Shown here in pieces: positions 910 to 25,285 of a DNA stretch of 34,199 bases; position 1 is the first letter of the stretch; every line of letters begins with the position of its first letter. Both the position numbers and the translations under genes were made by a program. This DNA comes from Chiloscyllium plagiosum (taxonomy: Eukaryota), in the NCBI RefSeq assembly GCF_004010195.1, contig NC_057719.1, forward strand, positions 12,404,137-12,438,335. Direction: 5' to 3'. The notes beneath the pieces were generated by a model. It ran no database searches, was not told where the DNA came from, and was given only the letters and a program-made list of their open reading frames with translations.

Positions 910-2225
910 TTTAATCAGAGGTGGTCAGCATGTCTTTGAAAGAGGGCATCATGTCTGACAAATCTGGTTGAAATGTTTGAGGTGACCGAACATGTGGATG
1001 AAGATAGTGTAGTGGACGTCGTTTACGTAGAATTTAGCAAGGCCATTAACAAGGTCCCACATTGGAAACTGATAAAGAAGATTAAAAGCACACAGGATCC
1101 AGAGTAACTTGGCAAGTTGGATCGAACATTGGCTTTGTGACAGGAGACAAGGGGGTGGTGGTCGAAAGCTGTTTGTGTGACTGGAGCTCGGAATCCAGTG
1201 GTGTACTCCGGATCCGTGCTGGGTCCATTACTGATTGTGATATGTATCTGTGTGTATGATTTAGATTAGATAGATGCAATAATAAGAAAGTTGACAGTGA
1301 GGAAGAAGATCTTGGGTTACAGGAGGATATAAACAGATTGGTCAGATGATCTTGTCAGTGACAGATGGAACTTAGCGATGATAAGTGTGAGGTGATGCAT
1401 TTTGGAAGAAGGAACAAGTCTCTGGATTACTCCGTGCTTGAGATACTAGGAAGCTCAGGAATAAGGGGACCTTGGGGTGCTTGTCCACAAATTTCTGAAG
1501 ATGGAAGGCAGGTTAATAAGGTGACTAAGAAGGCATACACTGCCTTTTTTCAGTTGAGACATAGATTATAAAGGGGAGGAGGCTTTGTAGTAAGGTTATA
1601 ATCAACTAGGAGAAAGTATAGAGGGAGAAGGGGAACTCTCCTGCTCCTCGGATGCTGCGTGACCGGCTGTGCTTTTCCAGCGCCACACTTAGACATAGAT
1701 TATAAGAGCATTTTGGAAAAGTGCAGAACTTTGGATAAGCCACAGCTGGAGTACTGTGTGCATTTATGGTCACCATACTATAGGAGGGATGCGATTGCCC
1801 TGTAGGAGTGCTGAGGAGTTCACTGGAATGCTGCCTGGGATGGAGCATTTCGCCTGTGAAGAGAGGCTGGATAGGCTTGAGGGAGAGACTCAATAGAGGT
1901 GTACAAGAGGCCTGTGTAGAAAGCAGCTGAAAGATAAGGGTTAGTTGAAAAGTCAATAATAAGGGGGCACATTTTTAAGGTGAAAGGCAGGAGGTTTAGA
2001 GGAGAGTTGAAATCATTTTTCACCCCGAGGGTGGTGGGGTTCTGGAATGCACGACCTGGGAGGGTAGTAGATGTGGGGAAAAAGGTACATGGATAAACAC
2101 TTGAAATGTCATAATATTCAAGGTTATGGACCAAGTACTGGAAAGTTAGATTAGTGTAGATTTAGCACAGTTTTGGCAGTGAAGACTTGCTGGGCCAAAG
2201 GGCATCTTATGTAATGTATGATTCT
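910..2225 (+). mobile_element. Degenerate CR1 LINE 3' portion (RT C-terminal region and 3' UTR), interrupted at 1572-1690
   Basis: Decayed motifs: VDVVYVEFSKAINKVPH, KCEVMHFGRRN, CCACAGCTGGAGTACTGTGTG (PQLEYCV). Ends in a TATGATTCT tail. Confidence 0.85.
1572..1690 (+). mobile_element. Truncated Penelope-like insertion with 15-bp TSD
   Basis: AGACATAGATTATAA occurs at 1557-1571 and 1691-1705. The insert ends in CTCCTGCTCCTCGGATGCTGCGTGACCGGCTGTGCTTTTCCAGC, the right arm of the 8687-8905 family. Confidence 0.85.
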
Positions 2226-7973: not shown

Positions 7974-8120
7974 AAGCGATCCCATTGGCTGACACTGGTG
8001 CAGCAAAAGAGCCAGAGGTACCTGCTGGACTTCCGGTAGCAACAACTACAATGGCAATGCCTACGGGTTTGGAAGCTCAGCCTTTAGTGTTGTCACCTAG
8101 TATACTTGGAGCAGAGGAAG
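7974..8120 (+). CDS. ZNF410: ZNF410 penultimate coding exon (147 nt, phase 1-1)
   Basis: Branch-like TGCTAAC (7938-7944), pyrimidine tract, TTTCAG acceptor and GTATGT donor. Translates (E)AIPLADTGAAKEPEVPAGLPVATTTMAMPTGLEAQPLVLSPSILGAEE. SILGAEE parallels human SILGVDD and the exon is in frame with both neighbours. Confidence 0.9.
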
Positions 8121-8438
8121 GTATGTAGACAAGCCAAGTTTTTTTTTAAAAAATGCAAGTGTTTTGCTTGTTTTACATGTTTATTTCTTTGTTTGTCCAG
8201 ATTGTATAACATCATGCACCTTTCCTTGCCTCTGAGATGCACTGGGTCAACCTGCTTCTAGGTCATGAACTGACAACTACTTTATGTACCCGTCTCTCCC
8301 AGGTTGACTTGCTATACGAATTTTCCTCTCCCTCTACCTTCCCTTGACTCCTGTTGAACAGGTAGTTTGTGCATTCTTGGAGGGGAAGAGTTCCAGATTT
8401 CCAACATCCTTTGCAGACAAGAGTTTAAAAATCAGGAC

Positions 8439-8667
8439 TGAAATAATTGCACAGAGACCAGTATCCATCACCAAGTCACCTTTTATTTACATGTGAACAG
8501 TACGTGGGTCCTGACCGGCCAGCTCAGAGCCAGTCCCTAGACTGAGTTGACCTTCTGAATCTTCTGTTTATATCTGTCAGCCAGGGCTCCTTGATTGGGT
8601 TTGTTAACCTGGGCCAATCAAGGATCTCCATAGTCAACGATACCTGACCCTGGTTTCAACCATTGCA
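8439..8667 (-). mobile_element. Solo LTR (229 bp) with 5-bp TSD
   Basis: TG...CA ends (TGAAAT/ATTGCA). AGGAC occurs at 8434-8438 and 8668-8672. On the - strand CCAAT, GATATAAA (about 8567-8574) and AATAAA (about 8482-8487) appear in LTR order. Confidence 0.85.
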
Positions 8668-8686
8668 AGGACTCTCCCATTTTAAG

Positions 8687-8905
8687 GGAGAAAGTGAGGA
8701 CTGCAGATGCTGGAGATCAGAGCTTAAAAATATGTTGCTGGAAAAGTGCAGCAGGTCAGGCAGCATCAAAGGAACAGGAGAATCGACGTTTCGGGCATAA
8801 GCCCTTCAGCCATTCCTGAAGAAGGGCTTATGCCCGAAACGTCGATTCTCCTGTTCCTTTGATGCTGCCTGACCTGCTGCGCTTTTCCAGCAACGCATTT
8901 TTAAG
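8687..8905. mobile_element. Penelope-like non-autonomous hairpin element with 15-bp TSD and hammerhead motif
   Basis: 89-nt inverted arms (8719-8807 and 8821-8909) with 3 mismatches. An unpaired tail of about 32 nt lies on the left. CTCTCCCATTTTAAG occurs at 8672-8686 and 8906-8920. Confidence 0.9.
8812..8847 (+). ncRNA. Minimal type I hammerhead ribozyme motif with intact core
   Basis: CTGAAGA (8816-8822), one extra A, stem II GGGC-TTAT-GCCC, GAAA (8836-8839), then CG-TC. Predicted cleavage is after C8843. Stem I is short (ATTC/GATT, one mismatch). Confidence 0.75.
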
Positions 8906-9165
8906 CTCTCCCATTTTAAGCCTGAGATGAGGTTGTTTTTTTAATGAGAGTTGTGGGTCTTTGGAGCTCTGTTCCCCAGACTCTAGGAGGGGTTGTTATC
9001 AAATACTTTTAAGACCGAGGTTAATAGAACCTTGACTAACAAGGGAGCCCATGGTTATCAGGAGTAGGAAGGAAAGTGGTGTTAAAATGATGATCAGATC
9101 AACTCGATCTTGTTAAATGATGGAAGAGCCTTGAGGGCGAAATAGCTTACTCTTGTTAATAATTT
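8906..9165 (+). mobile_element. Old CR1 3' end; host of the LTR and hairpin insertions (begins about 8420)
   Basis: GAGTTTAAAAATCAGG...CCATTTTAAGCCTGAGATGAGG...GAGAGTTGTGGGTCTTTGG...TTGAGGGCGAAATAGCTTACTC is a typical CR1 ORF2 end and 3' UTR. Confidence 0.7.
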
Positions 9166-9435
9166 GTCAGTTTGTATGAAGAACTGCTTCCCAGCATCTT
9201 TGACTTACTTAGTTTTTATTTCAAGGTTATGCACCTTTTCTGTCCAGACTCTGCCCATGAGAGGAAATAGCTTCTGTCCATCCCAGTAATTATCTTAATC
9301 ATCTTAAATGACTCACTAATCATTCCCAATTAATTTGTAATGAAGCGAATACAAGCTTTCTGACTTGATAATGTAACACTTTGTAAAAAAAAGATGTATT
9401 AAAAATGTCTTTTTTTTTTGTTTCCCCTCTGCCAG

Positions 9436-9578
9436 AAGTATTACCTGAGAATTCTCCTTCAGTTACTGGTACAGCGACCACTGCATCCGTTGTTGTTCTG
9501 CCCCAGCCGCACCATCTGGTTACTATCGCCACGGCCGGACATTCTTACGAAGAAGTAGTTACTGTGATAATACAGTGA
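9436..9578 (+). CDS. ZNF410: ZNF410 terminal coding exon (143 nt to TGA)
   Basis: Long T tract and GCCAG acceptor. Translates (E)VLPENSPSVTGTATTASVVVLPQPHHLVTIATAGHSYEEVVTVIIQ*. EVL..SP, HHLVT and SYE match the recalled human C-terminus. Confidence 0.92.
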
Positions 9579-11753: not shown

Positions 11754-11967
11754 GGCAAATGTGAGGACTACAGATGCTGGAAATCAGAGTCTGGATTAGA
11801 GTGGTGCTGGAAAAGCACAGCAGGTCAGGCAGCATCCAAGGAGCAGGAAAATCAACGTTTCAGGCAAAAGTCATTCCTGATCAAGGGCTTTTGCCTGAAA
11901 CATCGATTTTCCTGCTCCTCAGATGCTGCCTGACCTGTTGTGCTTTTCCAGCACCACTCTAATCCAA
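11754..11967. mobile_element. Penelope-like hairpin element with 12-bp TSD; hammerhead core mutated
   Basis: GAAGTCTGGCTG occurs at 11742-11753 and 11968-11979. Inverted arms TGGATTAGAGTGGTGCTGG/CCAGCACCACTCTAATCCA with a one-sided tail. Core reads CTGATCA...GAAACATC. Confidence 0.88.
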
Positions 11968-12517
11968 GAAGTCTGGCTGTGTTACCTTTTCCGCCCTCCT
12001 GGTTTAGTACTCCAGCACCCCTCTGATTATGAATGTGTAGCTCTGCTTAGACTAATGAGCAACAGAAGCTTCAAACTGCCTGTCCATACTGCTTCACTTG
12101 ACCCTGTGCTCTAAAAAACATTTTCACATGAAACTTGGTCCATAATGGTCGCTTTAGAAGTGTGCAATGTCTTTCCGTAGTTTGAGAATCCAGTCACCCT
12201 AATTCCCAATGAAATTGCAATTGGAATTCAAGCTATTGTCCTCTGTACTTATAACCTTCATTGTTCTGTAGTGTGTGGTGGAAAACATGATTGAGGAGAT
12301 TGTCACTCCACAGCTTGAGAATCAGTGACTACCAGATAGACCACACAGCAGAACAATTTGGAAGAGAGAGTAGTCATAGTCCAAAAGGATATAAATGTCA
12401 TGAGTGGAAAAGTTGAGGTCCTTCAGGCAGATTTTAAGGAATGAGGAAAGAGATTAAAATGTAGGACTTCAAAAGTCATACCATATACTAGTGAGTACAG
12501 AAATTGGAGGATTGATA

Positions 12518-21530: not shown

Positions 21531-21870
21531 ATCAGAGTGGTGGTGGAAAAGCACAGCAGGTCAGGTAGCATCCGAGGAGCAGGAAAATCGGGCAAAAGCC
21601 ATTCATCAGGAATTGAGGCAGGGAGCCTCCAGGGAGGAGAGATAAATGGAACGGGGGGAGGGACTGTGGAGAAGGTTGAAAAGAGTATATGAGGTGAATG
21701 GGGATGGGGATGGAGTTGATAGAACAGAGAGGAGGTTGGGGGAATTTAGCAAAAAATACATTTTTTGGACGTGTGTATGAAGGACATAGATCAGAGGGGG
21801 GTGGAGCGGATAGGTGGGAAGGGAGATCGGCAGATAGGGCAGGCTAGGAGGAGAGTGCTAAGCTGGAAGT
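21531..21870 (-). mobile_element. Longer Penelope-like 3' UTR/pseudo-LTR fragment; probable parent of the hairpin family
   Basis: Arm GGAAAAGCACAGCAGGTCAGG matches 11810-11830. The - strand core CTGATGAATGGCTTTTGCCCG lacks AAACGTCG. It continues into about 250 nt that is G-rich on the + strand. Confidence 0.7.
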
Positions 21871-22321: not shown

Positions 22322-22937
22322 TGGAAAGATGTTGTGAAACTTGAAAGGGTTCAGAAAAGATTTAGAAGGATGTTGCCAGGGTTGGAGGATCTGAGCTACA
22401 GGGAGAGGCTGAGCAGGCTGGGGCTGTTTTCCCTGGACCATCGGAGGCTAAGGGGTGATCTTACAAAATTATGAGGGGCATGGATGCGATAAATAGACAA
22501 AGTCTTTTCCCTGGGGTCAGGGAGTCCAGAACTAGAGGGCATAGGTTTAGGGTGAGAGGGGAAAGATATAAAAGGGACCTAAGGGGCAACTTTTTCACAC
22601 AGAGGGTGGTTTGTGTATGGAATGAGCTGCCAGAGGAAGTGGTGGAGGCTGGTACAATTATAACATTTAAATGGCATTGGATGGGTATATGAATAGGGAG
22701 GAAGTTTCTGAAGAAGGGCTCATGCTCGAAACGGCGATTCTCCTGCTCCTTGGATGCTGCCTGACCTGCTGTGCTTTTCCAGCAACACATTTTCAGCTGG
22801 GTATATGAATAGGAAGGGTTTGGAGGGATATGGGCCGGGTGCTGGCAGGTGGGACTAGATTGGGTTGGGATATCTGGTCGGCGTGGACAGGTTAGACCGA
22901 AGGGTCTGTTTCCATGCTGTACATCTCTATGACTCTA
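22322..22937 (+). mobile_element. Young CR1 (HER1-like) 3' end, interrupted at 22698-22797
   Basis: ORF 22471-22692 reads RTRGHRFRVRGERYKRDLRGNFFTQRVVCVWNELP. Tail CTCTATGACTCTA. Highly similar to 32556-33063. Confidence 0.92.
22698..22797 (+). mobile_element. Single-arm Penelope-like insertion with 16-bp TSD and near-intact hammerhead
   Basis: TGGGTATATGAATAGG occurs at 22682-22697 and 22798-22813. Core CTGAAGA-A-GGGC-TCAT-GCTC-GAAA-CG-GC, with the cleavage-site U changed to G. Confidence 0.9.
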
Positions 22938-23977: not shown

Positions 23978-25285
23978 GAGTCAGAGAGTGATCGAGATGT
24001 ACAGCATTCCAACAGTAGCCTAACCAATGTCNNNNNNNNNNNNNNNNNNNNNNNNNNNNNNNNNNNNNNNNNNNNNNNNNNNNNNNNNNNNNNNNNNNNN
24101 NNNNNNNNNNNNNNNNNNNNNNNNNNNNNNNNNNNNNNNNNNNNNNNNNNNNNNNNNNNNNNNNNNNNNNNNNNNNNNNNNNNNNNNNNNNNNNNNNNNN
24201 NNNNNNNNNNNNNNNNNNNNNNNNNNNNNNNNNNNNNNNNNNNNNNNNNNNNNNNNNNNNNNNNNNNNNNNNNNNNNNNNNNNNNNNNNNNNNNNNNNNN
24301 NNNNNNNNNNNNNNNNNNNNNNNNNNNNNNNNNNNNNNNNNNNNNNNNNNNNNNNNNNNNNNNNNNNNNNNNNNNNNNNNNNNNNNNNNNNNNNNNNNNN
24401 NNNNNNNNNNNNNNNNNNNNNNNNNNNNNNNNNNNNNNNNNNNNNNNNNNNNNNNNNNNNNNNNNNNNNNNNNNNNNNNNNNNNNNNNNNNNNNNNNNNN
24501 NNNNNNNNNNNNNNNNNNNNNNNNNNNNNNNNNNNNNNNNNNNNNNNNNNNNNNNNNNNNNNNNNNNNNNNNNNNNNNNNNNNNNNNNNNNNNNNNNNNN
24601 NNNNNNNNNNNNNNNNNNNNNNNNNNNNNNNNNNNNNNNNNNNNNNNNNNNNNNNNNNNNNNNNNNNNNNNNNNNNNNNNNNNNNNNNNNNNNNNNNNNN
24701 NNNNNNNNNNNNNNNNNNNNNNNNNNNNNNNNNNNNNNNNNNNNNNNNNNNNNNNNNNNNNNNNNNNNNNNNNNNNNNNNNNNNNNNNNNNNNNNNNNNN
24801 NNNNNNNNNNNNNNNNNNNNNNNNNNNNNNNNNNNNNNNNNNNNNNNNNNNNNNNNNNNNNNNNNNNNNNNNNNNNNNNNNNNNNNNNNNNNNNNNNNNN
24901 NNNNNNNNNNNNNNNNNNNNNNNNNNNNNNNNNNNNNNNNNNNNNNNNNNNNNNNNNNGTCTATATCTTCCATATCCTTTTCCACAGTAAATACTGATGC
25001 AAAATACTGATTTAGTATCTCCCCCATTTTCTGCGGCTCCACACAAAGGTCATTTTGCTGATCTTTGAGGGGCCCTATTCCCTACCTAGTTACCCTTTTG
25101 CCCTTAATGTGTTTGTAAAAACTCTTTGGATTCTCCTTAATTCTATTTGCCAAATCTCATGTCCCCCTCCTGATTTTCCTCTTAAATATACTCCTACTTC
25201 CTTTATACTCTAAGGATTCACTCGATCTAGCCTGTCTATACCTTACATATGCTTCCTTCTTTTTCTTAACCAAACCCTCAATTTC
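23978..25285 (-). mobile_element. CR1 ORF2 copy spanning the assembly gap
   Basis: The right flank reads MGEILNQYFASVFTVEKDMEDID. The left flank reads TLVRLLLECC and is fused to a CR1 tail remnant. Confidence 0.8.
24032..24958. other. Assembly gap (927 N)
   Basis: Run of N. Confidence 1.

Follow-up and report, generated by a model that had tools for sequence, protein, structure and literature searches.

Head-to-head 5' ends of a Penelope-like element form a hammerhead-bearing hairpin in a ZNF410-like intron of the shark Chiloscyllium plagiosum

Endonuclease-positive Penelope-like elements (PLEs) leave behind insertions of a peculiar shape. As described for the Pen2a_Av type (PMC3846280; PMC8557442), these combine a head-to-head inverted pLTR with a 30-40-bp tail at one end, a target-site duplication (TSD) of about 9-15 bp, a parent in partial tandem and an initiator-like motif in the pLTR, and initiators have been reported in other PLE pLTRs as well (PMC2377424, PMC3846280). 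In vitro, a PLE from an anole extends both strands and copies uncut RNA; the tail is delimited by its two internal priming sites (PMC11167929). Neptune and Nematis have in common a CX2-5CxxC linker between the reverse transcriptase (RT) and the endonuclease (EN), according to PMC8557442. The minimal hammerheads of PLEs, as set out in PMC4209133, are recognised by an extra nucleotide between 9 and 10.1, a G10.1-C11.1 pair and a palindromic 15.2-16.2; single minimal hammerheads gave no cleavage in vitro in that account, and a dimer result of Lünse et al. is relayed in a review (PMC6765202). The shark insert described here shares every one of the Pen2a_Av-type traits, and its layout is the one already known for endonuclease-positive PLEs, an inverted pLTR with a tail. 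Its two arms correspond to the initial ~95 and ~128 nt of a Neptune-type PLE in the same genome. Since neither the Penelope insertion cycle nor the part that the hammerhead plays in it is settled, the insert's family is useful, and its stubs likely record where element RNA starts rather than the predicted ribozyme cut.

The window, that is, the whole stretch of 34,199 nucleotides analysed, holds the insert at 8687-8905 (Table 1). Its inverted repeat has arms of 89 nt each at 8719-8807 and 8821-8909 (97% complementary), the flanking direct repeats are 100% identical over all 15 nt, and the 32 extra nucleotides lie on one side of the insert only. The first-pass annotation, made from the letters alone, had described just such an 89-bp inverted repeat with a 32-nt one-sided tail and a 15-bp TSD, and repeat search and sequence confirm it. 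Four bases, CTCT (8906-8909), are common to the right arm and the target. Folded as RNA, the insert collapses into one long hairpin (-167 kcal/mol, z = -21) in which 86 of 89 bp of the arm duplex are paired, with an A8732·C8896 mismatch within. The tail terminus is the far, fixed copy end and the putative RT start site, and A8812 is the putative transcription start.

Table 1. Features of the hairpin insertion and its host intron (window coordinates; element positions counted from core C3)
Feature	Position	Strand	Basis or remark
5' TSD copy, 15 bp	8672..8686	+	repeat search
One-sided tail, 32 nt, element about +93 to +125	8687..8718	-	
Left arm, inverted copy of the parent 5' end, begins at +5, core without G8/A9	8719..8807	-	
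Junction filler AGCC, head-to-head	8808..8811	+	junctions differ among copies
A at -4, preferred copy 5' start genome-wide	8812..8812	+	initiator-like context
Minimal type I hammerhead motif, helix I AUUC/GAUU with U·U	8812..8847	+	sequence, compared with the description in PMC4209133
Right arm, parent -4 to about +89, stops at the near, variable copy end	8812..8905	+	
3' TSD copy	8906..8920	+	repeat search
Last coding intron of the ZNF410-like gene, 1315 nt, GT..AG	8121..9435	+	transcript contigs

The parent itself is present in the genome. Its family is abundant: the exact 31-nt core occurs 28,912 times genome-wide, about once per 120 kb, and the exact 27-nt arm motif 83,332 times, with reversed controls of 0 for each. 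The arms of the hairpin share 93-97% identity with the 5' end of the four ORF-bearing copies tested, which supports the Penelope-derived origin proposed earlier; the left arm with its tail is 93-95% identical to ORF-bearing copies, in which the parent sequence runs on past the tail end, into 5' UTR and ORF. The accompanying idea of the hairpin as an independent retroelement found no support, as the arms are the 5' end of an autonomous Neptune-type element and the junctions differ in many copies. Longer copies place a C-rich 3' UTR 5' of the core, and GIY-YIG and RT coding sequence before that UTR. In one of them, L255, a long frame matches RVT_1 above the cut-off (E 4.7e-8), GIY-YIG weakly (E 2.9e-4; 21.5 bits, just below the 22.6 cut-off), and the RT-EN linker reads CNRRRCNTC (CX4CxxC), the motif on which the putative assignment to the Neptune-type clade is based, rather than on a tree. 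The Met of the parent ORF lies ~160 nt beyond the core; an ORF starting inside the arm was considered and discarded, its ATG frame closing after about 42 codons and the real ORF beginning further down. One copy (L108) has a 131-aa frame 5' of it, at about 397-790 of the oriented upstream stretch, which we take to resemble a retroviral envelope transmembrane segment. Partial tandem pLTRs, an inverted 5' pLTR and a 30-40-bp tail all occur in the parent family, L263 being a partial tandem of pLTR-ORF-pLTR and L068 carrying an inverted pLTR with tail. The inverted-pLTR-plus-tail layout had been called typical of PLEs, and this agrees with the description of Pen2a_Av (PMC3846280).

On the plus strand the hammerhead core runs CUGAAGA (8816-8822), an extra A8823, the stem GGGC/GCCC (8824-8835), GAAA, CG and UC (8843), with the predicted cut after C8843. 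An intact core at 8816-8843, and a mirror core on the minus strand that has lost 3 nt, had both been claimed from the sequence and both are there, G8 and A9 being among the lost bases. The conserved CUGANGA...GAAA...UH is present, and across subfamilies the variable positions are N7 and loop II. With A8823 as the extra base between 9 and 10.1, G8824-C8835 as G10.1-C11.1 and ACGU as the palindromic 15.2-16.2, the shark motif shares core bases and diagnostic features with the minimal type I hammerheads of metazoan PLEs as described in PMC4209133, a comparison that supports the type and palindrome first proposed. Helix II is 4 bp; helix I forms 3 of 4 pairs where 4-5 bp are expected for the type, and other families in the genome have it perfect (AUUC/GAAU, AGUC/GACU, AGCU/AGCU). 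In those families the core is kept while helices I and II change pairwise. Stem covariation, proposed beforehand as a test, is present in 6 of the 8 pairs of helices I and II, which change on both sides (score 0.40 against 0.18 shuffled and <=0.13 slid) in a set of 12 rows hand-picked out of 283 that were retrieved by core pattern and are therefore biased. At least four further hammerhead-bearing repeat families (L041:406-457, L217:1489-1537, L224:2158-2202, L018:846-892) differ in helices I and II, and one has GAAAGCUA instead of GAAACGUC. A sister subfamily (L255, L257, L264, L266) has a perfect 4-bp helix I and offers a natural contrast to the U·U subfamily. The Rfam hammerhead models, a check suggested at the outset, gave zero matches at gathering score or at E up to 10; generic miRNA-hairpin matches from Rfam were dismissed, being below their own cut-offs. 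When two cores are cofolded, a competing GUCGAU pairing forms across the cut, not ACGU. In the full hairpin the closing pair of helix II has a probability of 4e-12, against 0.99 in the right arm alone, and helix II is disfavoured by 15.7 kcal/mol. The suggestion that the upstream arm locks the core in duplex is thus sound by folding computation, and in ZNF410 pre-mRNA the ribozyme would be held in duplex and then removed with the intron.

From the first 3 Mb of one chromosome, 107 arms were selected by a motif 3' of the cut; a few adjoin assembly gaps, microhomology blurs the hairpin joins, and the reference ended at +124. Their 3' ends cluster twice: 60 lie at +82..+96 and 47 at +119..+124, counted from core C3. 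The gap between the two clusters is the tail, and the pair matches the two internal priming sites of the anole element (PMC11167929). Their 5' ends are spread more widely: 41 at -10..0, 21 at +1..+10, 27 far upstream, 4 at +28..+30 and 14 elsewhere. A genome-wide count of patterns put 7,188 starts at -4; the predicted cut (+28) had 566 and a control position (+31) 664, which rough correction for the flanking-base filters turns into about 12,800 : 1,600 : 1,350. Starts at -4 are ~8-fold commoner than at the ribozyme cut, a ratio that is approximate because the -4 pattern used a different anchor from the +28 and +31 patterns. Neither the 107 arms nor the genome-wide pattern counts show a clear peak of copy starts at the cut. 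The +28 class amounts to about 1.2-1.35 times the control, and a start peak there was rejected, about 10 of 30 '+28' loci being microhomology joins and 4 of 30 not starts. From these counts of copy starts we argue that ribozyme-cut RNA is a minor template at most; a small fraction of template may be cleaved.

Copies that run into the ORF tell a similar tale: among 20, seven start at -7..+2, three are tandems, two lie at gaps, eight start elsewhere and none starts at +28. In 8 of the 20, a short unit from -4/-5 is joined directly to ORF +524..+680, without intervening 3' UTR, which is the pattern expected of run-off followed by a template jump. L271, L274, L275, L278, L279, L281, L282 and L283 are small partial tandems, made of 5' UTR and 500-680 nt of ORF and then a unit restarting at -4/-5. 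Several of them are TSD-bounded, and such small partial tandems look like run-off plus template jump. The context of the copy start, YCATTCC, presumably fits an initiator with the A as +1. RNA reads of other copies break at -4 more often than at -3 (152 vs 40), and were set aside as a sign of RNA starts, as these breaks reflect genomic boundaries. When the first 100 of the 7,188 matches at -4 were taken, 56 hairpin-type joins were put aside and the 44 host-flanked matches counted by eye; the base before A(-4) was G in 28, A in 8 and T in 8 (p about 1e-7 against local composition). In L1 and SVA, capped full-length inserts carry an extra G as the trace of cap copying (PMC11702581, PMC2912911). 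Among TSD-resolved shark copies the G is clearly added in 2 and lies in the target in 5 (L289 and four others, among which two are duplicates); one copy has an added A. Such a G before A(-4) would result from a target preference as well as from pairing between a cap-derived C and a G in the target.

The reading that we prefer, at a probability of about 0.72, is that the insert joins, head to head, two copies of the terminal 95-128 nt at the 5' end of a high-copy Neptune-type element, and that it was produced in one insertion from two short cDNAs run off capped, uncut RNA. Observation covers the structure of the parent, its copy numbers, the pair of 3' end sites, the -4 start that copies share and the variable junctions. 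The element RNA would start at an A, 4 nt before the hammerhead core, and the element protein would nick both target strands about 12-15 bp apart. Priming would use the near site (+84 to +96) on one strand and the far site (+124) on its partner, and the difference would become the tail. Priming on the 5' copy of the terminal repeat would let each cDNA end after about 100-130 nt, whereupon the two cDNA ends, mostly of the same source, would anneal via microhomology or short snap-back, with the ribozyme probably no more than a passenger. Certain observations sit uneasily with this account. The G is clearly untemplated in just the two TSD-resolved copies, and target preference would do too; and run-off cannot account for every short copy, since 27 of the 107 arms reach far into the 3' UTR. 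Some hairpins may have undergone secondary copying, and a hairpin master would also explain why 22 of 30 copies chosen by a single motif have one join in common. Arkhipova (2013) attributes junctions of this kind to self-priming on an antisense template (PMC3846280).

That last view, applied to the same parent, would have the second arm made by fold-back (self-priming) of one cDNA or of an antisense template; in a variant, the pile-up at -4 would come from stalling or processing and not from a capped start. We hold this unlikely, for all that it is the strongest of the alternatives. Hairpin arms agree at 58-61 of 63 diagnostic sites, against 49-68% expected at three variable sites, short fold-back fillers occur at junctions, and a self-priming model has been published (PMC3846280). 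However, a fold-back of near-site cDNA cannot supply the inverted arm where it is the longer of the two, as it is in most hairpins examined; an RNA end fits both the excess of G and the joining of -4 units to ORF interiors. A two-template origin of the arms was also rejected, the discordance (4-5 of 63 at two sites, against a 2.3% background) being too small.

Less likely still, the hairpin would be a non-autonomous element of MITE or SINE type, transcribed in full and reinserted as a unit by the Penelope protein. A DNA search gave 2,522 candidates, and the best 40 scored, barring the window copy itself, all cover almost all of the 219 nt, with 92-95% identity; the recurrent join and the concordance of arms within copies point the same way. 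Those best matches, however, were selected by likeness to the query, and 77 hairpins (fetched loci, a biased set) show 32 spacer lengths. The recurrent join is seen with the tail on either arm (L037 and L047 against the L032 type), which favours preferred annealing over one master copy, and solo arms, longer hairpins and ORF-bearing copies all have the same ends. In 30 whole-hairpin copies the tail end is fixed, the opposite end shifts by a few bases and the centre varies, with TSDs of 10-18 bp (one mismatch allowed) in 26. Identity as a MITE, a class with TIRs at both ends, uniform length and a short fixed TSD, was rejected on the one-sided tail, the variable junction and near end, and the 10-18-bp TSD.

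As to the host gene, exons of a shark ZNF410-like protein flank the hairpin, and in a protein search the queried exon is 100% identical to an entry named for Chiloscyllium plagiosum; a PDB sequence search gave no clean name for the gene and ranked ZNF410 ninth. Its last three coding exons lie at ~2609-2732, 7974-8120 and 9436-9578. Transcript contigs from two runs splice out the intervening sequence normally, skipping it as GT..AG, which places the hairpin within the last coding intron with its core in sense; exon mapping and contigs together thus bear out the position and orientation first proposed. The location looks incidental: with an intact core about once per 120 kb, at least four related pieces in the window and normal splicing, ZNF410 is not singled out. 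An older stub hairpin of a sister subfamily, with tail, a TSD of about 13 bp and a decayed core, occupies 11757-11968, just beyond the ZNF410 3' UTR region. Further pieces of these Penelope ends, or of related ones, lie at 21531-21760 (-), 22705-22797 (+), 1637-1681 (+) and about 833-895; among these four, one has a 3' UTR, one is a solo copy with TSD inside another repeat, and two are decayed fragments. RNA reads and contigs from other loci pile up at 8384-8625, which suggests another repeat just 5' of the hairpin. Positions 24032-24958 are 927 bases of N, and a tRNA search of the window found none.

An A·C mismatch in a long duplex is of the kind that ADAR favours, and A8732·C8896 is a candidate editing site. 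Editing at A8732 would restore the family base, so that locus-specific reads alone could reveal it. Changes in the reads on the element (A>G 6, G>A 9, T>C 9, C>T 5) have no A>G bias; 96% of the X19 reads on the element continue into unlike sequence, and the unique intron flank 8989-9351 has zero X19 reads. Reads on the element thus derive from other copies. That the ribozyme is active at this locus, or that the hairpin persists because it serves ZNF410 RNA through cleavage, editing or splicing control, seems very improbable: the core is intact and sense and the 86/89-bp duplex has its ADAR-favoured mismatch, but helix II is disfavoured within the hairpin, helix I has its U·U, two cores cofold through GUCGAU, single minimal hammerheads stay uncleaved in vitro (PMC4209133), the intron is spliced out, and the copy is young and one among tens of thousands.

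The single ZNF410 insertion matters little, and the mechanistic signal of the family is modest but testable. By the counts, copied RNA in the shark family mostly starts just 5' of an uncut ribozyme, in agreement with one in vitro study, and the counts point to an exact candidate site, A(-4). We give even odds to a broader proposal, in which the shark stubs are a fossil library of Penelope 'strong-stop' cDNAs with a capped -4 start, an uncut hammerhead, two internal priming sites on both strands, and head-to-head joining or a jump into the RNA interior. If true, a single mechanism would account for tails, inverted pLTRs and tandems in vivo, and the template's 5' end would not be made by ribozyme cleavage. 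Sharks, moreover, carry very many 90-bp perfect hairpins, many of them presumably intronic, a possible large source of dsRNA.

A search of papers found no published description of shark or hairpin Penelope stubs; the family may already be catalogued in Repbase or Dfam. Set against the Pen2a_Av-type insertions it otherwise resembles, as these are described, the shark insert consists of the two ends only, without an ORF, in tens of thousands of copies with one 5' start. The non-LTR retrozymes (bioRxiv 10.64898/2026.07.22.740005) are likewise non-coding, hammerhead-bearing and derived from PLE pLTRs; in the text of that paper, sharks are not mentioned. Theirs are head-to-tail tandem units, whereas the shark insert is a head-to-head pair with one core broken. 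Identity with them was rejected on that ground, an inverted pair with one broken core not being tandem units each with a complete hammerhead. Compared with the metazoan PLE hammerheads described in PMC4209133, the shark motif, a predicted ribozyme, has a helix I of 3/4 pairs with U·U (perfect in the sister subfamily) and a 4-bp helix II. A close mechanistic parallel is Poseidon of Anolis carolinensis (PAc; PMC11167929), where too a hammerhead heads the coding unit, two internal priming sites bound the tail, both strands are extended and uncut RNA is the template. The shark parent differs from PAc, as reported there, in being Neptune-type (CX4CxxC linker) and in having its ORF Met ~160 nt beyond the core, not in stem II; genomic hairpins and the RNA start were not the focus of the PAc account (PMC11167929).
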